In this document: piece by piece, positions 5,924 to 59,501 of the stretch
Numbering within the stretch: the first letter of the stretch is position 1
Layout: every line of letters starts with the position of its first letter
NCBI GenBank assembly: GCA_009380075.1
Contig: WHSO01000001.1
Coordinates: forward strand, 108,266 to 172,265
Direction of reading: 5' to 3'
Length of the DNA stretch: 64,000 nt
Origin: Alphaproteobacteria bacterium
GTDB taxonomy: Bacteria > Pseudomonadota > Alphaproteobacteria > SMXQ01
Program-made: the position numbers and the translations under genes
Notes under the pieces: model-generated
What the model was told of the DNA's origin: nothing
What the model saw: the letters and a program-made list of their open reading frames with translations, nothing else
Database searches by the model: none

Positions 5924-6661
5924 ATGTTCGGGCTTGAAGGCAGGAAGGCACTGGTCACCGGTGCCAGTGGCGGCATCGGCGGTGCTGTCGCCCGTGCGCT
6001 GCATGCGGCGGGGGCCTCGGTCGTGCTCTCGGGGACGCGCAAGGCGGCGCTCGACGCGCTGGCGGCCGATCTGGGTGCGCGCGCCCACGTCGCCGTCGCC
6101 GATCTTTCCACGGGACAAGGGGTTGAGGCTCTGGTCAAGGAAGCCGAATCGGCGATGGGCGGTATCGACATCCTCGTCAACAATGCGGGACTGACGCGCG
6201 ACCAGCTTCTCCTCCGCATGAAGGATGAGGACTGGCAGCAGGTTCTCGACGTCAACCTTACGGCGGCATTTCGCCTCTCCCGTGGCGTTCTCCGCGGCAT
6301 GATGAGGGCGCGCTTTGGGCGCATCGTTTCCATCACGTCGGTGGTCGGGACCACCGGCAATCCCGGCCAGGCAAATTATGCGGCGTCGAAGGCGGGGCTC
6401 ACGGGCTTCACCAAGTCGCTGGCGATGGAGGTGGCAAGCCGCAATATCACCGTCAATTGCGTCGCGCCCGGGTTTGTCGTCACAGCGATGACGGACGCCC
6501 TCAGCGACGACCAGCGCAACAGGGCGATCGCTGCAATTCCGGTGGGGCGGTTTGGCGATCCCGCCGACGTCGCCGCCGCCGTGGTGTACCTGGCCAGTGA
6601 CGAGGCCGCCTATGTCACGGGCCAGACCCTGCACGTCAATGGCGGGATGGCGATGATCTAG
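5924..6661 (+). CDS. fabG: 3-oxoacyl-ACP reductase
   Basis: Internal start giving MFGLEGRKALVTGASGGIGGAVAR, followed by NNAG, the YAASKAG catalytic motif and a position typical of FabG. The track ORF is extended upstream through a GC-rich open frame. Confidence 0.9.
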   Translation: MFGLEGRKALVTGASGGIGGAVARALHAAGASVVLSGTRKAALDALAADLGARAHVAVADLSTGQGVEALVKEAESAMGGIDILVNNAGLTRDQLLLRMKDEDWQQVLDVNLTAAFRLSRGVLRGMMRARFGRIVSITSVVGTTGNPGQANYAASKAGLTGFTKSLAMEVASRNITVNCVAPGFVVTAMTDALSDDQRNRAIAAIPVGRFGDPADVAAAVVYLASDEAAYVTGQTLHVNGGMAMI

Positions 6662-6916
6662 GTCCGCGAATCGCGCGCGTGATCGACCGCGACCCCGTTG
6701 AAGTCATGGCGTTTTCCCGATTTCGTGGGGTGCTGGTCAAGCCTGTAAAATTATGTTACCAACGGGCACTTTCGCGCACGGACCGTGGGCGGAGGGCATG
6801 GAGTCGCGCGGCGCCGGATTGGCCCGTGAACCGCGAAAATAGTATGGGTTGGACAACGTATTTATTCTGGCCAACATTATCCCGTGTGGGATCCTTAAAC
6901 TAAGGAATGAGAAAAT

Positions 6917-7150
6917 ATGAGCGATGTTGCTGAACGCGTGACCAAGATCGTTGTCGAACATCTCGGTGTCGACGAGGGAAAGGTCACGGAGAACGCGAGC
7001 TTCATTGATGATCTTGGTGCCGACAGTCTCGATACGGTCGAACTCGTCATGGCCTTCGAGGAAGAGTTCGGCTGTGAGATTCCCGATGACGCTGCGGAAA
7101 AGATTCTGACCGTTAAGGATGCCATTGCCTACATCGAGGCGAACATCTGA
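6917..7150 (+). CDS. acpP: Acyl carrier protein
   Basis: 77 aa with the phosphopantetheine attachment motif [21 protein letters not shown]. It is preceded by a 255-bp AT-richer leader and promoter region. Confidence 0.95.
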
Positions 7151-7204
7151 TCCAACGGGTGTGCACAGCCACCCTCACTTTCCACGTTCACATCCAAAGC
7201 CGCC

Positions 7205-8467
7205 ATGAGACGCGTCGTCATCACAGGTCTCGGTCTTGTTACGCCGCTGGGTTGTGGGGTCGAACAGACGTGGTCACGACTGATCAGGGGCGATTCGGGG
7301 CTTGGCGCGATTCAGTCCTTCGACGTCACCGATTTGCCCTGCAAGGTTGCGGGGCAGGTACCGCGCGGCGATTCCGAGCAGGGCAGGTTCAATCCCGATG
7401 ATTGGGTCGATCCCAAGGAGCAGCGCAAGATGGATACCTTCATCGTCTTCGCGCTCGCCGCCGGTATCCAGGCGGTCCAGGATTCCGGATGGCAGCCCGA
7501 GGGCGAGGAGGACCGGCAGCGTACCGGCGTCATGATCGGCTCGGGTATCGGCGGCCTGCCCGCGATCGCGGAAGCGGCCGTCACGCTGCTCGAGCGCGGG
7601 GCTCGACGGATCAGTCCCTTCTTCATCCCGTCGGCGCTGATCAATCTCGCGTCGGGACATCTCTCCATCAAATACGGTTTCCGTGGCCCCAACCATTCTG
7701 TCGTCACCGCCTGCGCCACGGGGGCGCATGCCATCGGTGACGCCGCGCGGATCATCCAGTTCGAGGATGCGGAGGTGATGGTCGCCGGCGGCACGGAGGC
7801 CGCAGTATGCCGCCTTGGGCTGGCCGGATTCGCCGCGTCGCGGGCGCTTTCGACCGCCTTCAACGATACCCCCGCACGGGCGTCGCGGCCCTGGGACAGG
7901 GACCGCGACGGCTTCGTGATGGGTGAGGGCGCGGGCGTCGTCGTGCTGGAGGAGTATGAGCACGCGAAGAAACGCGGCGCTAAGATCTATGCGGAAGTCA
8001 AGGGCTACGGCATGTCGGGCGATGCCTACCATGTCACCGCTCCTTCGCCGAACGTCGATGGCGGATACCGGGCCATGTCGGCCGCGCTCAAGCGGGCCGC
8101 CCTCAACCTCGACGATATCGATTATATCAATGCCCACGGTACGTCGACGCCGCTTGGGGACGAAATCGAACTCGGCGCCGTGAAGCGCCTTTTCGGCGAT
8201 CATGCCTACAAGCTGTCCATGTCGTCGACCAAATCGGCGATCGGCCACCTATTGGGGGCAGCCGGCAGCGTCGAGGCGATTTTCTCGGTGCTGGCGTTGC
8301 GTGACGGCGTCGTTCCACCGACACTCAATCTCGAGAACCCTTCGGACGGCTGCGACATCGATCTGGTGCCGCTCACGGCGAAGTCGCGCCCGATAAAGAC
8401 CGTCCTGTCCAACTCGTTCGGATTTGGCGGCACCAATGCGTCGCTCGTCTTCACGGCGGTCAACTGA
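7205..8467 (+). CDS. fabF: 3-oxoacyl-ACP synthase II
   Basis: 420 aa beginning MRRVVITGLGLVTPLG, with the active-site Cys region VVTACATGAHAIG and the C-terminal GFGGTNASLVF motif. Confidence 0.92.
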   Translation: MRRVVITGLGLVTPLGCGVEQTWSRLIRGDSGLGAIQSFDVTDLPCKVAGQVPRGDSEQGRFNPDDWVDPKEQRKMDTFIVFALAAGIQAVQDSGWQPEGEEDRQRTGVMIGSGIGGLPAIAEAAVTLLERGARRISPFFIPSALINLASGHLSIKYGFRGPNHSVVTACATGAHAIGDAARIIQFEDAEVMVAGGTEAAVCRLGLAGFAASRALSTAFNDTPARASRPWDRDRDGFVMGEGAGVVVLEEYEHAKKRGAKIYAEVKGYGMSGDAYHVTAPSPNVDGGYRAMSAALKRAALNLDDIDYINAHGTSTPLGDEIELGAVKRLFGDHAYKLSMSSTKSAIGHLLGAAGSVEAIFSVLALRDGVVPPTLNLENPSDGCDIDLVPLTAKSRPIKTVLSNSFGFGGTNASLVFTAVN

Positions 8468-30995: not shown

Positions 30996-32501
30996 GTGGC
31001 AAGGCCCGAACGTATCCCATCCGCCACATCTCGCGGCCTTGCTCCACTGATCGCCGTCATCGACATCGGATCCAATTCGGTTCGCATGGTGGTCTACACC
31101 GGCGCCGGGCGCATTTCCGCGCCGGTCTATAACGAACGGACTCTCTGTGGTCTTGGACGGGTCATGGGGTCGACGGGCCGGCTCGACCCCGACGCGGTCT
31201 CGACGGCACTGTCCCATCTCGGGCGCTTCGTGACGCTCATGGGTGCCATGGATGTCAGCCGGGTCGAGGCTTTTGCGACGGAAGCGGTACGTGCCGCGTC
31301 CGACGGCGCGGACTTCGTGGCCGAAGCCGAAAAGATCCTGGGGACGACGATCAGCATCCTCGACGGCGCGACCGAGGCCGAAACCTCGGCCTTCGGCGTC
31401 GTATCGGGTATCCCCGATGCCAGTGGCATTATGGGAGATCTTGGTGGCGGAAGCCTGGAGATCGTGGCGCTCAACGCAGGCAAGCCGGGTGATCGGGCGA
31501 CCCTGCCCATCGGCGCGTTGCGCCTCAGCGAGGCGGTGGGTGCTGTCACCGTCAAGGCGGGCGGCATCGTCGATAAGGCCCTGGCGGGCGTGAGCTGGCT
31601 CGGCGCGGCGAAGGGCAAGGCATTCTACCCGGTGGGCGGGGCCTGGCGCGCGTTCGCGACGGTCCACATGGCGCAGGAGAACTATCCCCTCCACGTCATC
31701 CACCAGTACACCCTCGGCCGCTCCGACGCGTTGGCCCTGCTTCGGCTGATCTCGCGGCTCAGTCCGAGCTCCCTCACCAAGATACGCCATGTGCCGAAGG
31801 CACGGCTCAGGACCCTTCCCCTCGCCGCGGTGGTGATGGAGCGGCTGCTCATCGCCGCACAGCCGAAGGAGGTCGTCTTTTCCGCCTTCGGGCTGCGCGA
31901 AGGATGGCTCTATCGGCGCCTGCCCGAAGCGGAACGTGCCAAGGACCCGCTGATCTTCGCCGCCGAGGAGATCGCCGCGCGCGAATCGCGTTTCGCCATG
32001 CCGGGCGACCAGCTCGATGACTGGTTGTCCGCCGTATTCCAGGACGAAACGCCGCGCCTCCGCCGCCTTCGCCGCGTGGCCGTGCTGCTCAGCGACATCG
32101 CCTGGCGCGACCATCCCGACTACCGGGCGAGGGACAGCTTTTCCCGCGTCCTGCACCTTTCGCTCACGGGAATCGATCACCGTGAACGGATTCTCCTGGC
32201 CTACATGGTCAGTTCCAGCTACGGCGGCGGGCGCACGGGGCCCGTCCGCAGTCTCGTCCTGCCGTTGGTCGATGCCGACGATGTCGACCACGCCATCACC
32301 GTCGGCCGCGCGATCCGTTTTGCCCGCACGCTGTCGGCGGGCACGATCGACGTCCTGCGCACGACACGGCTCGAGCTCGGCAAGTCGCAACTGACCCTGC
32401 ACGTGCCCAAGGGCATGGGATATCTGCTCAGCGAGGAGATTTCGCGACGCTTCGAGGTGCTGGCGCGGCGTCTGAAGCGAAAACCCCAGATCAAGGACTA
32501 G
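30996..32501 (+). CDS. ppx: Exopolyphosphatase (Ppx/GppA family)
   Basis: A GTG start 5 nt after the ppk stop gives VARPERIPSATSRGLAPLIAVIDIGSNSVRMVVY… and the actin-like ATPase fold motif DLGGGSLE. The track ORF from 30552 is a read-through of the ppk 3' region. Confidence 0.85.
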   Translation: MARPERIPSATSRGLAPLIAVIDIGSNSVRMVVYTGAGRISAPVYNERTLCGLGRVMGSTGRLDPDAVSTALSHLGRFVTLMGAMDVSRVEAFATEAVRAASDGADFVAEAEKILGTTISILDGATEAETSAFGVVSGIPDASGIMGDLGGGSLEIVALNAGKPGDRATLPIGALRLSEAVGAVTVKAGGIVDKALAGVSWLGAAKGKAFYPVGGAWRAFATVHMAQENYPLHVIHQYTLGRSDALALLRLISRLSPSSLTKIRHVPKARLRTLPLAAVVMERLLIAAQPKEVVFSAFGLREGWLYRRLPEAERAKDPLIFAAEEIAARESRFAMPGDQLDDWLSAVFQDETPRLRRLRRVAVLLSDIAWRDHPDYRARDSFSRVLHLSLTGIDHRERILLAYMVSSSYGGGRTGPVRSLVLPLVDADDVDHAITVGRAIRFARTLSAGTIDVLRTTRLELGKSQLTLHVPKGMGYLLSEEISRRFEVLARRLKRKPQIKD

Positions 32502-49447: not shown

Positions 49448-49539
49448 GGCCGCAGCCTGCGGCAGCGTGCCCGCCCCGCATATATCCCCTTTACCTATGT
49501 AGCCTGACATGCCATATTAAGTCCATAGGAGGGCTGGAT

Positions 49540-50412
49540 ATGGCCAAGGCGATGACGATTTCTCAATTCTTTCAACGGTTTCCAGACGACGATGCGTGTC
49601 TTGATCACCTGATGAACGTCCGCTATGGCATGGAGGGCGATTGCCCCAAGTGCGGCAAGCACACGAACTGGTCCCGTATCCGCAAGGAGCCTGCCTACCA
49701 GTGCCAGTGGTGCGGCCATCATATTCATCCGATGGCCGGGACCCCCTTCCAGAACACCCGTACGCCGCTCCAGAAGTGGTTCTATGCCATGTTCATGTTC
49801 ACCACGACCCGGAACGGCGTGGCAGCCAAGGAATTGCAGAGGCAGCTTGGAGTGACCTACAAGTGCGCTTGGAGGATGGGCCACGAAATCCGCAAGTATC
49901 TCGCCTACGTTGACGGGGATGCCCCCTTGGGCGGTTCCGGGATCGTGGAAGCGGACAAGGCGTGGATCGGCGGCGTGGCCCCCAAGGAACGGCCCTACGA
50001 AAACAAGTCCATCGTCCTCGGCATGGTCGAACGTGGCGGCGAAGTGATTACCCGGATCGTCAATTCCCGCGCGATGGAAGTCGTCGTTCCCCACGTCCTC
50101 GAAAACGTCAAACCCGGCACCCGCGTCTATACCGATGAGTCCACCACGTTCATGCGCTTGAACGAGGAAGGCTACCGGCACGACTTCATTACCCATGCCG
50201 CCAAGGAATACGTTCGCGGTCCCGTTCATACCAACACCATCGAAGGCTTCTGGGCTGCCCTGAAACGCGGCATCAACGGGACGCACGTATGGGTTTCCAA
50301 GCAGCACCTGGACAAGTATCTCGGTGAGTTTGAATTCCGGTTCAATCTTCGGAAGTCCCCTCACTTGATGTTTGATCTTTTGCTGGCGGCTTTCCCGAGG
50401 CCATCCCGGTAA
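49540..50412 (+). CDS. IS1595-family transposase (N-terminal zinc finger plus DDE domain)
   Basis: RBS AGGAGGG 7 nt upstream of the ATG. Product begins MAKAMTISQFFQRFPDDDACLDHLMNVRYGMEGDCPKCGKHTNWSRIRKEPAYQCQWCGHH… and contains WKRAIN-type DDE core regions (…YTDESTTF…, …HTNTIEGFWAALKRGINGTH…). Confidence 0.85.
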   Translation: MAKAMTISQFFQRFPDDDACLDHLMNVRYGMEGDCPKCGKHTNWSRIRKEPAYQCQWCGHHIHPMAGTPFQNTRTPLQKWFYAMFMFTTTRNGVAAKELQRQLGVTYKCAWRMGHEIRKYLAYVDGDAPLGGSGIVEADKAWIGGVAPKERPYENKSIVLGMVERGGEVITRIVNSRAMEVVVPHVLENVKPGTRVYTDESTTFMRLNEEGYRHDFITHAAKEYVRGPVHTNTIEGFWAALKRGINGTHVWVSKQHLDKYLGEFEFRFNLRKSPHLMFDLLLAAFPRPSR

Positions 50413-50536
50413 GCAGTTTGTCGAAGCGGCGCGTTTCGGTTTTCGCCGGATGCTCCTTCGCAAACTCTTTCAGCTTCCCGAGCTTGCGGGCTTCTTCAAG
50501 GGAGAGGTATTTACCTTGCGCCATTTTGTGACTCAC
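50342..50536 (-). CDS. Hypothetical 64-aa passenger protein. Its 3' 71 nt are antisense to the transposase 3' end.
   Basis: MSHKMAQGKYLSLEEARKLGKLKEFAKEHPAKTETRRFDKLL… is a helical-looking N-terminal part and a low-complexity C-terminus. Its start overlaps the stop of the upstream 197-aa gene by 26 nt on the same strand. Only the first ~40 codons lie outside the transposase. Confidence 0.35.
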   Translation of the reverse strand: MSHKMAQGKYLSLEEARKLGKLKEFAKEHPAKTETRRFDKLLTGMASGKPPAKDQTSSEGTSED

Positions 50537-51104
50537 TCTTTTCCCAAATCTTTTCGTAGGAATTCCAAAGTTCAGAAAACGCTTCGGGGTGTCTGCTTCT
50601 AGAAATCCTTATAGATGGACGCCGATCTCTACGAGAAAACGGCATTGCTATTTCCAGATGTGCGAACGCGTTTTTCCCAGATGGGTCTGCAATCCACCAT
50701 GAATAGCCAATGAATTCACTGTACCATTTGACTTGAATGCCTTTCTCAATCGCCATTTGTGTCACTTCCCGTATTTGGTCACGGATTGACATGCCGTCCG
50801 GGAGCGAACTTTCAAAACATTTCAAAGATGCACTATCGGGATTCGGCAGTATCAGACGTTTTATTTTTTCAAGCTGTTCTCCGGATTGGAATTGTTTACG
50901 CCCTGCAACCCAAAAAACATGCGCTTCCGTAACTCGCCGCAATTCATCCGTGAGCGGGCGTATGCGATCAAGGCCGTGCCTATCTGGATAAAACTCAACT
51001 CCCGTAATACCTCGCCGCAGGGCCATCAGCAGCCACCATAGCCATCGGAACGGTAGCCACTCGAATATCGTCCGCCAGAATGCCTCGCCTTTTTCGCCCG
51101 ACAT
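50511..51104 (-). CDS. Hypothetical 197-aa membrane-anchored passenger protein of unknown function
   Basis: ATG at 51104 preceded by GGGGGAAAGAG. One N-terminal TM helix (WRTIFEWLPFRWLWWLLMAL), then a soluble domain of about 160 aa (…FYPDRHGLDRIRPLTDELRRVTEAHVFWVAGRK… and …GIQVKWYSEFIGYSWWIADPSGKNAFAHLEIAMPF…). I recognise no family for it. GC is about 48%, against about 66% for the genome. Confidence 0.55.
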   Translation of the reverse strand: MSGEKGEAFWRTIFEWLPFRWLWWLLMALRRGITGVEFYPDRHGLDRIRPLTDELRRVTEAHVFWVAGRKQFQSGEQLEKIKRLILPNPDSASLKCFESSLPDGMSIRDQIREVTQMAIEKGIQVKWYSEFIGYSWWIADPSGKNAFAHLEIAMPFSRRDRRPSIRISRSRHPEAFSELWNSYEKIWEKSESQNGAR

Positions 51105-51237
51105 GACTCTTTCCCCCACGCGCCCCATGCGCTACGGGCTAGATACCACCATCGGGGGCCTTTGTACATAGCCCAAGGGGATATATGCGGCCCGCCCTGT
51201 CAAGAACGAAAAGTGAACAGATGGGGCAGACGCGCCC

Positions 51238-51849
51238 TCAACCCTTGCGGCGGCCGATCCGGAGCTCGGTCCCCTGCCACAGGCGCACGATATTGGCGTT
51301 GTGGCGGACGATCACCAGAAGAGCCAGGGCCGCGGCGACCATCGACAGGAACGGGCCGGAGAACATCCAGGCGAGGGCGGGCAGGGAGGCCATGCTCACC
51401 AGGGCGGCGAGGGAGGAATAGCGCGACAGCGCCGCCACCGCGGCCCAGACCAGGAGCGCGACCACCGCTGCCGGCCAGCAGGCGGCGATCATCACGCCGT
51501 AGGTGGTGGCGACGCCCTTGCCGCCCCTGAAGCCGAGCCAGACCGGGAAGACGTGGCCGAGCACCGCGCCGGCCCCGGCGGCCAGCGCGGCGACGTCGCC
51601 GAAGCGGGCGGCGAGGAGCACCGCTGCCACGCCCTTGGCCGCGTCGAGCAGCAGCGTCGCCGCGGCGATGCCCTTGCGCCCGGTGCGCAGCACGTTGGTG
51701 GCGCCGATGTTGCCCGAGCCCACGTCGCGGATGTCGCCGAGCCCGGCGGCGCGGGTCAGCAGCAGCCCGAACGGAATCGACCCCAGGAGGTAGCCGCCGA
51801 GGAGAGCCGCGAGGACCGGTCCCAAGGCGCCTGCGCCGTCGCCGCCCAT
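51238..51849 (-). CDS. plsY: Glycerol-3-phosphate acyltransferase PlsY
   Basis: …LLGSIPFGLLLTR…GSGNIGATNVLRTGRK… and a polytopic PlsY fold. Confidence 0.9.
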   Translation of the reverse strand: MGGDGAGALGPVLAALLGGYLLGSIPFGLLLTRAAGLGDIRDVGSGNIGATNVLRTGRKGIAAATLLLDAAKGVAAVLLAARFGDVAALAAGAGAVLGHVFPVWLGFRGGKGVATTYGVMIAACWPAAVVALLVWAAVAALSRYSSLAALVSMASLPALAWMFSGPFLSMVAAALALLVIVRHNANIVRLWQGTELRIGRRKG

Positions 51850-54952: not shown

Positions 54953-54964
54953 GTACCAATTATG

Positions 54965-54990
54965 TTGATATCAACTTATTTGTCAATCAA
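54965..54990. promoter_or_regulatory. Candidate MarR operator region in the marR divergent promoter
   Basis: A perfect 10-bp palindrome TTGATATCAA (54965-54974) is followed by the related TTGTCAATCAA (54980-54990). Both lie within 40 bp of the marR start codon. Confidence 0.45.
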
Positions 54991-55022
54991 ACAATTCGGG
55001 CTACCCCAAGAGGGAGACTGCG

Positions 55023-55172
55023 ATACAGTTCCTGGCGTTCTACAGACCCGCAGAAATCTCCGACGCCCCGCCAAGTCCGGAACACATGGATCAGATGAAC
55101 CGTCTCATCGAGGCCATGCTGCAGATGAAGAAGCTCGACATTGCGACGCTGAAGCAGGCTGCCGAGGGATAG
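55023..55172 (+). pseudogene. Decayed YCII/DGPF-like gene with start-codon mutation and premature stop
   Basis: A strong SD AAGAGGGAGA is followed by ATA-CAG-TTC-CTG-GCG-TTC-TAC (I/M-Q-F-L-A-F-Y). ATA stands where ATG is expected. The frame continues ...RPAEISDAPPSPEHMDQMNRLIEAMLQMKKLDIATLKQAAEG and stops after about 50 codons, whereas YCII proteins are about 95 aa. Confidence 0.35.
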
Positions 55173-55226
55173 GCCGGACCCGGCATCGCACCACACGATC
55201 TCGACCCGACACGCAAGGAGATTCCC

Positions 55227-55958
55227 GTGCTTGACCAGATCGGAACGATCGTACTGATGACGGCGATCATCGTTAACTTCGGTGCGGTTGCCGTGGCGAT
55301 GGGCGGTTCGCTGGTGTGGCGGATCTCCTTCCTGATGATCGCCGGCCTGTGGACCGGCTTTGCGGTCGTGCTGGCGGCGGGTGGCGCACTACTCGGAAAT
55401 ACCGGCCTCGTCGGACCAGTGCCGCCGATCGGCGTCGTCGTTCTTACGCCTCTCGTCGCGGTGGCGGTGGCACTGGTGCTCTCGCCGGCCTTGCGCCGGA
55501 TGTTGCTGGCGCTGCCGACCGATCTGCTGATCGGACTCAATACGATCCGGATCATCGGTGTGTTTTTCCTGCTGCTCGTGGCACAGGGTCGTCTGGGCGG
55601 GCCGTTTCCCCAGTCCGCCGGTTGGGGCGACATCGCCACGGGTGTGGCGGCGCCATTGGTCGTACTGCTCCTTATAATACGGGCGCACAGGGGAGCCCCC
55701 GTCATTGCACGGGTCTGGAACGGGTTCGGTGCCCTCGATCTCGTCGCGGCCGTGGCGCTCGGCGCGATGTCGGCGGACGGCGCCCCCCTCCAGGTTTTCC
55801 ACACCGGGATCGCCGGGCCGCTACCCGTGCAGAGCCTGCCGTGGTCGCTGATCCCGACAGTGCTGGTGCCCTTCTGGCTAGTCCTCCACGGAATCATCCA
55901 TGTGCAACTGAGGCGCGGCACGACGTCCTTTCCCCGCTTGCACCTCGCGGGCGCATAA
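55227..55958 (+). CDS. Polytopic membrane protein of unknown function
   Basis: GTG start with AAGGAG 7 nt upstream. 243 aa, with six or more hydrophobic segments (MLDQIGTIVLMTAIIVNFGAVAVAMGGSLVWRISFLMIAGLWTGFAVVLAAGG…). Confidence 0.6.
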   Translation: MLDQIGTIVLMTAIIVNFGAVAVAMGGSLVWRISFLMIAGLWTGFAVVLAAGGALLGNTGLVGPVPPIGVVVLTPLVAVAVALVLSPALRRMLLALPTDLLIGLNTIRIIGVFFLLLVAQGRLGGPFPQSAGWGDIATGVAAPLVVLLLIIRAHRGAPVIARVWNGFGALDLVAAVALGAMSADGAPLQVFHTGIAGPLPVQSLPWSLIPTVLVPFWLVLHGIIHVQLRRGTTSFPRLHLAGA

Positions 55959-55969
55959 ACATAAAAAAG

Positions 55970-55993
55970 GGGCCGGTCCCGAAGGACCGGCCC
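55970..55993 (+). terminator. Intrinsic terminator hairpin after the membrane-protein gene
   Basis: GGGCCGGTCC-CGAA-GGACCGGCCC is a perfect 10-bp GC stem with a tetraloop. It starts 11 nt after the stop and is followed by AGGTTT. Confidence 0.7.
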
Positions 55994-56269
55994 AGGTTTA
56001 ACGCTCCTGACCGGGCGCTAGTTCATCACGGCCTGCGTGGCCGCGGGCGTGGATGCATACTGTCCCCTGATCACGACGACAGGGGCCCCTCGATGCCGAA
56101 GTCGTCATCGATCATGACGACGGGGTCCGCCGCCGCGCTCCACCATCCGCGATTCTGGCGAAGGTCATCGCATTGCAGTGTGACAGGAGGCCGCAACGAT
56201 TCGGGACAGATGGATGACAGATGGGGGAAGCCGGTGCTGGCCCGGTCGCGCCGCTCTCGGTCTTTTGTT

Positions 56270-56303
56270 GATATACAGTCAGATGAAGAAATTTCTGTAT
56301 ATC
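56270..56303. promoter_or_regulatory. Perfect 9-bp inverted repeat with a 16-nt spacer in the leader of the PilZ-methyltransferase gene
   Basis: GATATACAG-tcagatgaagaaattt-CTGTATATC lies in an AT-rich segment about 250 bp upstream of the 56552 start. Confidence 0.5.
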
Positions 56304-56551
56304 ATTAAAATAACATGATTTTTGGCTTCAACCATGGGTCGGTATGATCGTCCACAGTGACCTCTCGGCGCGCATACCCGTACTGCGTTTTTTCCAACTG
56401 CAAAAGCGGCGCCCTATTGGGTATTCTGAATATCGTTACAACAATTCCCGGCACAAAATTTGGCGTGGTGCATAAAGACCTTGGAATTTGACCCATTTAA
56501 TGCCTACGGTTAACAAAAGGTTAGCGTCACAAGTTTAGAGAGAACCTGACC

Positions 56552-58012
56552 ATGAAGACTTACGAGGACTTAACCGGCGCCGCCGGTCGCAAGGTTTTTT
56601 ATCGTGCGGAACGGTTTGCTGCGGCGGACCTGTTTCGCCGTCGGCCCCCGGCGGCGATCATCGACGGCGTTCACTACGAGCTGGAAAACCTCAGCATGAC
56701 GGGACTGGCTGCCCGCGCGCCGGCCGGGGAGGCGTGGCGCGGCGACGTTGGCTCCGACGTATCCGTCTGGCTTCAGCAGGGTAACGCCCCGCTGTTCGAG
56801 GGCGCGGGAAACGTCCGGCGCGTCGAACCCGCCGGCCGTCATTCGCGCATTGCGCTCAGCTTCAAGGGCGCGCCGTTATCGATTCCCGATCTCGTCTCCC
56901 GCCACAACGAGAATCAGTTGCTGGTTCAGCTCAACGGGGGACTTGGTCATTTGCGCGGCGAGGTACCGCCGGAATACCGGCGTCACTGCGCCGACGTGTT
57001 GCATCTCCTGCGCGGCTATCGTTCCGCGCTGAAGGATGTCGACAGCACCGCGGCGTCGAACGGAAGCCTGCCCGACACCGACCGCGTTGCCACGCTTTAC
57101 AGGATGGCCGAGGAACGCATGCTTCCCGAGTGGCGGCAGCTCTGGCATGAAGGGAACGCCCTTGTCCGTCCGTTGATGAGCGATGCGGCGCGGCTGATCC
57201 CGGTCAAGCAGTTCACCGAGAGCGTGCTGACGCCGGAGTTCATGGCGGGGGCAATCTGGAATCGCAGCTACCGCAAGCCGCTCGGCTATCCCGGCGACTA
57301 CGCCATGATGAATTACGTCTACGAATGGCAGCCCGTCGGCGATACGATCTACGAGCGGCTCATGCACCGTATCGGCCTTGACGTCGCGGAATGCATCGCG
57401 ACCCGGATGGTCATGGTGCAGGAGGCCATCGCCGAAACCGTCGCCACCCGGGCCGAAGGGGACACCGCGCGGGTCCTGAGCCTCGGCTGCGGACCGGCCC
57501 AGGAGGTCGCCAATTTCCTGCGCGCCCCCGCCCTGACGGCGCCGGTGGCCTTTACGCTCGTGGACCAGGACTGCCATGCGCTCGGTCACGCCTATGAGCG
57601 GGTCTACCGCGAGGTCGTGCGCCACAACAACCGCTCGACCGTCGAGTGTCTCCAGGCGTCGTTCGCGCAGCTCATGCGGGCGTCGGCGCTTTTCGCCGCC
57701 CTGCCGCCCCAGGATCTCATATACAGCGTCGGGCTTCTCGACTACCTGTCCATGCGGCGGGTACAGGAGCTCGTCCGCGCGCTGTTCGAAAAGGTGGCCC
57801 CCGGTGGGCAGCTCATCATCGGCAACATGGCCGACGTGGCCGGCGGCAACCAGTGGCCGATGGAATTCATCTGCGACTGGACGTTGCACTACCGCAGCGA
57901 GGCGGAGATGCACGACATGGCGGCGCTGGTTTCCGGGGCGACGATGACGCTGCGTCCCGATCCGACCGGAAGGGTTTACCTGCTGTATATCACCAAGCCC
58001 GGCGCGGCCTGA
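56552..58012 (+). CDS. Two-domain protein: N-terminal PilZ-like domain fused to a C-terminal class I SAM-dependent methyltransferase
   Basis: N-terminal residues 25-100 carry FRRRPP, then ...NLSMTG... and ...GNVRRVEPAGRHSRIALSF. These resemble the PilZ RxxxR / (D/N)xSxxG / G-x-V-R motifs. The C-terminal part carries methyltransferase motif I ARVLSLGCGPAQEV, post-I TLVDQD, motif II DLIYSVGLLDYLS and motif III VAPGGQLIIGN. Confidence 0.6.
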   Translation: MKTYEDLTGAAGRKVFYRAERFAAADLFRRRPPAAIIDGVHYELENLSMTGLAARAPAGEAWRGDVGSDVSVWLQQGNAPLFEGAGNVRRVEPAGRHSRIALSFKGAPLSIPDLVSRHNENQLLVQLNGGLGHLRGEVPPEYRRHCADVLHLLRGYRSALKDVDSTAASNGSLPDTDRVATLYRMAEERMLPEWRQLWHEGNALVRPLMSDAARLIPVKQFTESVLTPEFMAGAIWNRSYRKPLGYPGDYAMMNYVYEWQPVGDTIYERLMHRIGLDVAECIATRMVMVQEAIAETVATRAEGDTARVLSLGCGPAQEVANFLRAPALTAPVAFTLVDQDCHALGHAYERVYREVVRHNNRSTVECLQASFAQLMRASALFAALPPQDLIYSVGLLDYLSMRRVQELVRALFEKVAPGGQLIIGNMADVAGGNQWPMEFICDWTLHYRSEAEMHDMAALVSGATMTLRPDPTGRVYLLYITKPGAA

Positions 58013-58019
58013 CCCGGTC

Positions 58020-59501
58020 TCAGCCCGCCTCGGACAGCAGGGGCCACTGCTTCTGCTCCGCCTCCCAGCGCAGTACGCGCTCGGGCGGGAAGTGGATCGT
58101 CGCCGTCGTTCCCGAGCCGAGGCGGCTCTCGATCTGCAGGGTGCCGCTGTGCAGCTCGATGATCTTCTTGACCAGCGGAAGTCCCAGTCCCAGCCCCTCG
58201 TGAGAGCGGACGTGGGAGCTCTCCACCTGACCGAAGGGCTCGAGGACCTTGGGGATGTCGTCCTCGGCGATGCCGATGCCGGTGTCGCGAACGCTCACGG
58301 CGCAGCCGCCGTCGTCCTCGCAGGTGACCGAGACCGATACCTCACCGCCGCCGGGCGTGAACTTGATGGCGTTGTTGACCAGGTTGATGAGCGCCTGCTT
58401 CACGAGCCGTTCGTCCGCCCGCAGCAGTGCCCATGACGATACCTGCGTGGACAGCCTGACACCGCCCTCGGTGGCCCGGCTCTGCAGCATGCGCATGCAA
58501 CTGCCCACAGCCGCGCGCAGGTGCACTTCCTCTTCGATGACGTCGAGCTTGTTGGCCTCGGCCTTCGACAGGTCGAGGATATCGCTGATGACCTCGAGCA
58601 AGTGCTTGCCGGAGGAATGGATATCCTCCGCGTAGGACTTGTAGCGCGCGGATCCGATGGGTCCGAACATTTCCATCTTGAGGAATTCCGAGAAACCGAT
58701 GATGGCGTTCAGCGGCGTGCGCAGCTCGTGGCTGACGACGGCGAGGAACTCGCTCTTGGCGTGGCTGGCCGCCTGGGCCTCCCGGAGCAGATATTCCGAG
58801 CGCTCCTTCTCCTCGGTCAGGAGCTGCGTGTAGACGTAGGCACGCCGGATGTAAAGCTCCTGGATATAGGTGGCGAAGATACCGACCGCGCTGGCCATGA
58901 ACAGGAAGAAATTGTTGCTCAGCAGCGTCGACGGGGGAATCGGATTGATGTAGATGGCGACGATCTGGTAGGCGGCCACGGACGTGACGGAGACCGCCAC
59001 CGAATTCTTGAACTTGAGGCGGACGAGGGTCGAGCCGTAGATCACCACCATGATCAGGCCCGCGTAATAGAACACGTTGGCCGGCCAGGTGGTGATTGCC
59101 GTCATGACCACGATGCCGAGCCCGGCAAACAGCATCGACAGGGAGAGCAGGGCCTGCGCGACGTTGCCGAAGTTCTTGTAAAACGAGATCGCGATGACGG
59201 TCAGCATGAAGGGGCAGACGATCCCGAGCCGGATGCTCAGGACTTCGGCCAACTGGTCGCCGATCATGTGATAGTCGAGGAAACCGAAGCCCGCGTAGAG
59301 CACAGAGGCGAAGAACAGCGACAGGCGAATCAGCGGCAGCGACTTCGTCAGGTTGTCGGCGACGAATGCGTGCTCGACTTCGCGGTCCGCGAAGTCGAGC
59401 GTCAGGACCTTCAACCTGTATTTTGCCGGCGGGTTCTCCCGTCGACCGAATTGTCCCAACAGGGCTCTGGATAATGCGGTTCGCAAATTCGTCTCGGGCA
59501 A
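58020..59501 (-). CDS. Membrane-bound sensor histidine kinase (orphan, no adjacent response regulator)
   Basis: N-terminal polytopic domain of about 6 TM helices, then HisKA ([22 protein letters not shown]) and HATPase_c (…[17 protein letters not shown]…DTGIGI…[18 protein letters not shown]…). The gene is convergent with the 56552 gene. Confidence 0.85.

Follow-up and report, generated by a model that had tools for sequence, protein, structure and literature searches.

CtrA sites in Caulobacter crescentus and other Alphaproteobacteria carry two TTAA-type half-sites separated by a 7-bp spacer (11-bp phasing) and followed by a trailing C. The consensus, TTAA-N7-TTAA, is usually found at the -35 position (PMC11264516). 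Here we describe a 593-bp intergenic spacer in a 64,000-nt stretch of contig WHSO01000001.1 from an Alphaproteobacteria bacterium (the window), located between the stop codon of a 243-aa membrane-protein gene and the ATG of a 486-aa gene for a PilZ-domain, class I S-adenosylmethionine (SAM)-dependent methyltransferase. The spacer contains a box with two half-sites of this type, the same 7-bp spacing and the trailing C. Like known CtrA sites, the box is promoter-proximal to a signalling gene and is kept upstream of orthologues across several alphaproteobacterial orders. We propose that the spacer is probably an ordinary composite intergenic region rather than a single structured leader, and that a CtrA-controlled promoter forms its core. 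It begins with an intrinsic terminator hairpin directly after the membrane-protein gene and continues with a GC-rich non-coding block of ~270 bp, conserved only within the genus and carrying a 42-nt insertion. An AT-rich region, with conserved islands that fit promoter or operator sites, follows. The 100 bp before the start codon would then constitute the core promoter, with the CtrA-type box TTAA-N7-TTAGC as its key element. The features on which this proposal depends most directly are as follows.

55227-55958, plus strand: membrane-protein gene, 243 aa, upstream of the spacer
56454-56551, plus strand: proximal block of 98 bp with TTGGAA at 56481-56486, the most conserved stretch of the spacer
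56510-56525, plus strand: CtrA-type box TTAA-CAAAAGG-TTAGC (TTAACAAAAGGTTAGC), identified by its consensus match and its recurrence upstream of orthologues
56552-58012, plus strand: PilZ-domain/class I SAM-dependent methyltransferase gene, 486 aa, identified by Pfam

Relatives were collected from homologue searches and contig look-ups. Three contigs (L011-L013) are conspecific with the window, at 99% amino acid identity in the membrane protein. In a sister lineage (L006/L014), the methyltransferase is 92% identical and the membrane protein 88%. An outgroup (L015), whose genes are arranged in the same order, has a membrane protein of 80% identity. A further lineage (L007/L008) has a different upstream gene and 80% identity in the methyltransferase. 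More distant orthologues came from L001, L002, L003, L004/L018, Oceanibacterium (L021) and Parvibaculum (L022-L025). Identity at fourfold-degenerate sites served as the neutral yardstick (0.72-0.85 for L006, 0.69 for L015 and 0.53 for L007). Measured against it, most of the spacer lies near neutral-site identity in the L006 and L015 alignments, and discrete conserved islands stand out, including those at 56371-56431.

The CtrA-type box is the sole TTAA-N7-TTARC sequence in the 64 kb, where 0.05 would be expected. Of 8 lineages, 7 have the pattern TTAA-N7-TTA(A/G) in the 150 nt upstream of the orthologue's start codon, whereas by chance it would be found in such a region with a probability of 0.001-0.02 per lineage. 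These seven lineages (the window, L007, L001, L004/L018, L002, Parvibaculum L022/L024 and Oceanibacterium L021) form at least four independently alignable groups, and in the distant orthologues the motif is placed 30-150 nt before the start codon. Apart from the motif, nothing in the spacers of the distant orthologues can be aligned. Judged by these comparisons, the CtrA-type box is the sole element kept across distant relatives. The individual instances read as follows.

Window: GGTTAACAAAAGGTTAGCG
L001: GGTTAATGAAAACTTAACG
L004/L018: GGTTAAAAATTGTTTAACG
L002: GGTTAAAAATTCCTTAACG
Parvibaculum: TTAATCAATTGTTAAAG
Oceanibacterium: TTAAGACTTTGTTAAC

The surrounding proximal block is 83-96% identical to L006 and L015, and it is the sole part of the spacer strongly matched in L007 (E = 1e-13). 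We infer that it comprises the proximal promoter and a short 5' untranslated region (UTR) of the methyltransferase gene. No sigma-70-like promoter was found near the box by consensus scan. A sigma-54 or EcfG-type promoter, in the proximal block or in the GAATCGTT block described below, was rejected on inspection, as the spacings are wrong.

Given the consensus match, the recurrence in seven of eight lineages and the absence of a second match in the window, we infer that the PilZ-methyltransferase gene is a member of the CtrA regulon. Phosphorylated CtrA would bind the 11-bp-phased repeat upstream of the gene. If the box overlies the -35 element of a promoter with a very short leader, CtrA would activate transcription. 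If the promoter instead has TTGGAA or TTGAAT as its -35 element and the box covers its -10 element or start site, CtrA would act as a repressor. In either case, expression of a c-di-GMP-binding methyltransferase would be tied to the alphaproteobacterial cell-cycle and motility programme.

Several points weigh against this assignment. In the window, the second half-site reads TTAG where the consensus has TTAA, and no CtrA-type motif was found in the upstream region of L003. Just 26 nt separate the end of the box from the ATG. If the box overlaps the -35 element, the transcription start site therefore falls almost on the ATG, so that the usual placement of CtrA sites fits only a near-leaderless mRNA, and CtrA may be either activator or repressor here. 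The pattern G-TTAA-N7-TTAA-C is also symmetric, and another dimeric regulator could bind it. The assignment to CtrA is drawn from the sequence of the box and its recurrence. Finally, a CtrA promoter leaves unexplained both an invariant 24-nt block at the other end of the spacer and the minus-strand orientation of the terminator that adjoins it.

The 486-aa protein matches the Pfam families PilZ, Methyltransf_12 and Methyltransf_23, each slightly under the curated cut-off. Its homologues number 652, and none on record is an exact copy. In every lineage examined (the window, L006, L007/L008 and L018-L025), the methyltransferase gene is followed by a convergent gene for a membrane sensor histidine kinase with MASE8, HisKA and HATPase domains (56552-59501 for the pair in the window). 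For the kinase core, the highest scores came from the models of the cell-cycle kinases DivJ and PdhS, but these scores are far under the cut-offs. Several homologues of the methyltransferase bear JGI names taken from the PhcB-type "3-hydroxypalmitic acid methyl ester biosynthesis protein". This arrangement suggests a conserved pair of signal synthase and sensor.

The spacer is unusually long, as had been remarked when the sequence was first read. In a crude gene map of the window, only 3 of 52 gaps exceed its length, and the median gap is ~45 nt. The orthologues likewise have long upstream spacers of 275-455 nt. The division into a GC-rich 5' part and an AT-rich 3' part was also correctly described, with a GC content of 62-67% across 55960-56250, 37-51% across 56250-56550 and a drop near 56250. 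The same map, based on open reading frames (ORFs) and third-position GC content, places gaps equal to or longer than the spacer at 5951-7205, 31618-32219 and 49510-51238. These gaps may house genes of unusual composition or RNA genes; at gathering score, Rfam 15 returned no match anywhere in the window.

The sequence-only reading had been drawn to the symmetric elements of the spacer, all of which are present in the DNA within 1 nt of where it had placed them. Its 9-bp inverted repeat in the AT-rich part does exist, with arms of 10 bp rather than 9, and it overlooked a fourth, stronger element, a 10-bp GC-rich hairpin. The elements of the GC-rich part and the insertion discussed below are as follows.

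55970-55993: the overlooked 10-bp GC-rich hairpin
56064-56069 and 56080-56085: hairpin arms CCCCTG and CAGGGG
56069 and 56110: direct repeats GATCAYGACGACRGGG, 41 nt apart
56101-56108 and 56114-56121: palindrome arms GTCGTCAT and ATGACGAC
~56081-56122: species-specific 42-nt insertion, recognized from the alignment with L006/L014, L015 and L011-L013

The enrichment in symmetry is real. The 593 bp hold three perfect inverted repeats (arms of at least 8 bp, loops of 3-20 nt). Over 500 dinucleotide shuffles, the mean was 0.14 and no shuffle reached three, and only 4 of 107 window tiles of equal size hold as many. A 16-mer and a 26-mer taken from the spacer have no further copies in the window, and a repeat family was therefore rejected.

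The origin of these elements becomes apparent from the alignment. The 42 nt are present in the window and in the conspecific contigs and absent from the sister lineage and the outgroup. Since the outgroup also lacks them, the event is an insertion in the lineage of the window. The exact placement of the gap is ambiguous, the ends of the insertion being repeated. The inserted sequence holds one direct and one inverted copy of the neighbouring 12-mer GATCAYGACGAC, and these copies gave rise both to the palindrome (56101-56121) and to the second of the direct repeats (at 56110), and supplied the hairpin at 56064-56085 with its 3' arm. On this comparison, a single insertion mutation yields three of the four symmetric elements that had been noted. 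It looks like a replication error of the template-switch type. As far as the alignments indicate, the conspicuous palindromes are recent, species-specific mutations. The sequence-only reading had stated that two observations together would speak against it, and the non-conservation of the palindromes in related genomes, one half of the pair, is what the alignment returned. Its interpretation thus holds in part. The spacer does carry conserved, probably regulatory sequence, but the argument from the density of symmetric elements fails, as the elements are lineage-specific.

The same evidence bears on the view that the whole spacer is a structured 5' leader or riboswitch-like element on the plus strand, in which the palindromes act as RNA hairpins or operators. 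The length of the spacer, its enrichment in inverted repeats and the long spacers of the orthologues are consistent with such a leader. For one conserved island, island G, a hairpin of three helices can moreover be drawn, and its pairing survives the one-sided changes. However, this hairpin is only partly maintained in L007, the palindromes are lineage-specific, and the distant orthologues share only the CtrA-type box. The AT-rich half (56312-56565, plus strand) folds worse than its shuffles (z-score +1.0), and the plus strand of the GC-rich half reaches only -0.7 to -2.3. When Rfam was searched at E values up to 10 across 55000-57500, the spacer gave only sub-threshold matches that cover its terminator hairpin (sbrA, mmgR and SorY), and neither the c-di-GMP-I nor the c-di-GMP-II riboswitch was found. 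A terminator also separates the spacer from the upstream gene. We therefore regard a structured leader as very improbable.

This terminator opens a stretch with different properties, whose features are listed here.

55963-55993, minus strand: intrinsic terminator with stem GGGCCGGTCC/GGACCGGCCC at 55970-55993
55994-56262, strand not assigned: GC-rich (~65%) non-coding block, conserved in patches across the genus, which could form the body of a minus-strand small RNA
55998-56021, strand not assigned: invariant 24-nt block TTAACGCTCCTGACCGGGCGCTAG, adjoining the terminator
56204-56220, minus strand: direct repeats CTGTCAT-CCAT-CTGTCC with an 11-bp phase, conserved, candidate response-regulator site

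Of the 10 pairs in the terminator stem, 9 are GC. Read on the minus strand, the stem encloses a UUCG loop and is followed by a run of six T residues (55969-55963), so that a GC-rich stem-loop with a direct U-run is found on that strand, whereas on the plus strand only TTT follows the stem. The hairpin starts 11 nt past the upstream plus-strand stop codon, and it may also end the upstream gene. No terminator-like site in 60 kb is stronger. Between 4001 and 64000 of the window, 44 hairpins with a T-run were counted, against ~39 expected from shuffles. As the count is no higher than in the shuffles, intrinsic termination seems to be uncommon in this organism. The stem is kept in L006 and L015, where the pairs that vary can still wobble when read on the plus strand but are mismatched on the minus strand. 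Immediately next to it, TTAACGCTCCTGACCGGGCGCTAG is identical in the window, the sister lineage and the outgroup although fourfold-degenerate sites are only 69-85% identical, and it occurs once in the window.

The GC-rich block does not appear to encode a protein. Its GC content is flat across the codon phases (0.63/0.71/0.62), in contrast to the genes on either side (~0.70/0.47/0.81). On neither strand does a reading frame persist across the window, L006 and L015, each frame being interrupted by 1-nt indels or stop codons. Candidate small proteins (minus-strand ORFs of 41 and 36 aa, a 63-aa ORF at 56305-56496 and a long plus-strand ORF) were rejected, their frames being broken in L006 or L015. 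Across these three lineages, the amino acid identity of the spacer ORFs is not above that of random translation, and Pfam gave no match. The ORF spanning the palindromes is thus as non-protein-like as the sequence-only reading had judged it to be.

The properties of this block raise the possibility of a genus-specific small RNA (sRNA) gene on the minus strand, extending from ~55963 to 56180-56290, divergent from the methyltransferase gene, with the terminator (55993-55963) at its end. Only on that strand does the terminator have its canonical form, with a cUUCGg loop in the window and L015 followed by T6 or TTTCTT, and its strength stands out in a genome where such sites match the frequency in shuffles. 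Alphaproteobacterial Rho-independent terminators and terminator-bearing sRNAs likewise combine a UUCG loop and a U-run with a GC-rich stem of 10 bp. Many sRNAs of the Hfq type also have a conserved stretch just 5' of the terminator, a position that the invariant 24-nt block occupies here, directly upstream on the minus strand. Additionally, the block is conserved within the genus and non-coding yet as GC-rich as genes, and at its upstream end lie conserved blocks separated by a fixed 17-nt spacer. Its folding z-scores are consistently lower on the minus strand (-2.1, -1.1 and -3.3 for the window, L006 and L015, respectively) than on the plus strand (-0.9, -0.7 and -2.3).

On the other hand, no convincing minus-strand pair of -35 and -10 elements was found, and much of the block evolves near the neutral rate. 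Covariation is negligible: in an RNAalifold comparison of three lineages only, 1 of 68 minus-strand pairs and 4 of 73 plus-strand pairs are compensatory. Of the helices with one-sided (wobble) changes, two point to the plus strand and one to the minus strand. Folding and covariation, the check that had been proposed for this region, thus gave z-scores between -0.7 and -3.3 depending on strand and lineage, and few compensatory pairs. The two variant pairs of the terminator stem, mismatched on the minus strand and retained as wobbles on the plus strand, also speak against a minus-strand transcript, and a CCUCCU motif is mutated in the conspecific contigs. The hairpin could be the mere 3' end of the upstream gene. 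No Rfam family matched above threshold, and the sub-threshold sbrA, mmgR and SorY matches cover the terminator only. For MmgR/alpha-r8 (RF00519), the spacer scores 22.3 bits against a gathering score of 41, and the conserved single-stranded motif of this family, CCUCCCUAG, aligns to a gap; the spacer thus lies outside the family. A potential pairing of GGUCAGG in the RNA with CCUGACC at the methyltransferase ribosome-binding site was rejected, since 7 nt is about what chance provides and the match is not kept in L007.

We consider the sRNA gene possible, but doubtful. It is compatible with a CtrA promoter in the right-hand half of the spacer. If such an RNA exists, it would lie on the strand opposite to the one that the structured-leader view assumed; that view had allowed for a structured 5' UTR, for which neither Rfam nor the folding of the AT-rich half gives support.

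The block, gene-like in its GC content, could alternatively be the decayed remnant (a pseudogene) of a gene that formerly ended at the minus-strand terminator. The position of the terminator at the block's minus-strand 3' end, the near-neutral rate of much of the block and the fluid gene content of the locus (two extra genes in L006, a different upstream gene in L007) would agree with this. However, invariant islands of 11-24 nt are unexpected under neutral decay, and no frame retains residual protein conservation. Further relatives of the block were sought among plasmids by BLAST, which found nothing, and by an exact 20-mer scan of metagenome contigs, which gave 2 chance matches in high-GC coding DNA. 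Downstream of the homologous membrane-protein genes in L016 and L017, no intact counterpart is present. An ancestral gene at this position was rejected: on the Logan contig L016, the minus-strand gene call at 1345-1500 is probably spurious, as the plus strand there starts a translational-GTPase-like gene (MNLRNLAIIAHVDHGKT), and the neighbour in L017 is unrelated. A pseudogene origin is therefore quite unlikely.

Within the conserved islands of the GC-rich block are two GANTC sites (both GATTC, 56151-56155 and 56198-56202), the second of which all three lineages share. The alphaproteobacterial CcrM methylase targets GANTC, and the sites might provide a link to cell-cycle control.

The conserved stretches GTGACAGGAGG and AACGATTC, in this order, precede the direct repeats CTGTCAT-N4-CTGTCC, which all three lineages retain and which have no second occurrence in the window. 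The unit recurs a third time as CTGTCAC at 56181-56187, and the conserved GAATCGTT adjoins the repeats. CTGTCAT is the PHO-box unit in E. coli (PMC4415409). PhoB sites consist of 7-bp CTGTCAT repeats with a 4-bp spacer, and the repeats here share both the unit and the 11-bp phasing. In contrast to a PHO box, they lack a -10-like hexamer at the usual 10-bp distance, where GGCCTC is found instead, their spacer is GC-rich rather than AT-rich, and no phosphate-related gene is nearby. The pattern was moreover defined after the sequence had been seen.

In the AT-rich half, the following elements and their counterpart at the MarR gene were identified.

56269-56278 and 56295-56304, strand not assigned: perfect 10-bp inverted repeat TGATATACAG-N16-CTGTATATCA, lineage-specific
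56283-56311, plus strand: ATGAAG-N17-TAAAAT, invariant blocks with a variable spacer, candidate distal promoter
54955-54990: promoter region of the MarR gene, with the perfect 12-bp palindrome GTTGATATCAAC at 54964-54975, conserved in L006

The blocks ATGAAG and TAAAAT are invariant, and the 17 nt between them vary in sequence and are fixed in length, with no indels in three lineages. Invariant blocks with a variable spacer of fixed length are the signature of a promoter. We therefore regard the pair as a candidate promoter, either on the plus strand or, reversed, for a minus-strand unit. It went unflagged in the promoter consensus scan.

The left arm of the inverted repeat cannot be aligned in L006 or L015 and has one mismatch in L011/L012, and the right arm sits in a partly conserved stretch. 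It thus appears that the left arm is new and was copied, inverted, from the right arm. A further explanation is that the repeat is a newly evolved MarR operator, placing the methyltransferase gene or a divergent unit under MarR control in this species only. MarR-family operators are short palindromes in the regulator's own promoter. In the present case, GTTGATATCAAC overlaps the best sigma-70-like promoter match of the window (TTGACA-16-CATAAT, minus strand), and the region looks like a classic autoregulated MarR operator. The left arm shares TTGTTGATAT with this palindrome, and TTTTGTTGATAT (56263-56274) matches TTATGTTGATAT of the MarR promoter at 11 of 12 positions. A perfect 10-bp repeat is also very unlikely by chance, and it flanks the conserved ATGAAG-N17-TAAAAT pair.

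However, a single 11/12 match between two AT-rich spacers is about what chance would produce (an estimated ~0.7 expected). The half-sites are ~30 bp apart in the spacer and adjacent in the MarR operator. The repeat is imperfect in the conspecific L011/L012 and absent from L006 and L015, despite conservation of MarR and its operator. In L006, the resemblance of the left arm to the operator is lost as well. The link to the neighbouring MarR protein, which the sequence-only reading had put forward, is consequently weak, and we consider the operator unlikely.

Gene content between MarR and the membrane-protein gene also differs between the lineages. In L006/L014, this interval holds two extra genes, one for a protein of 116 aa and one for a protein of 163 aa that has a 3-dmu-9_3-mt domain (L006 2739-3717 versus 54953-55226 in the window), whereas the window's species has only a 49-aa ORF. 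This difference indicates a recent deletion or insertion.

These results call for caution in reading palindromes from a single genome, since a striking cluster of them can stem from one recent insertion instead of from function. The minus-strand terminator and the adjoining invariant block mark a candidate small RNA locus. A more speculative and rather improbable extension is that the GC-rich half encodes an undescribed, genus-restricted minus-strand sRNA of ~220-330 nt, closed by the sole canonical terminator within 60 kb and divergent from a CtrA-box-controlled methyltransferase gene that is always paired with a DivJ/PdhS-like histidine kinase. If true, the locus would constitute a cell-cycle-linked, c-di-GMP-gated signalling module with its own riboregulator. 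For the proposed CtrA-controlled promoter, the implication is wider: a CtrA-type box upstream of a widespread, uncharacterised family of PilZ-methyltransferases across several orders predicts that these genes belong to the CtrA regulon, and may offer a testable handle on the family.

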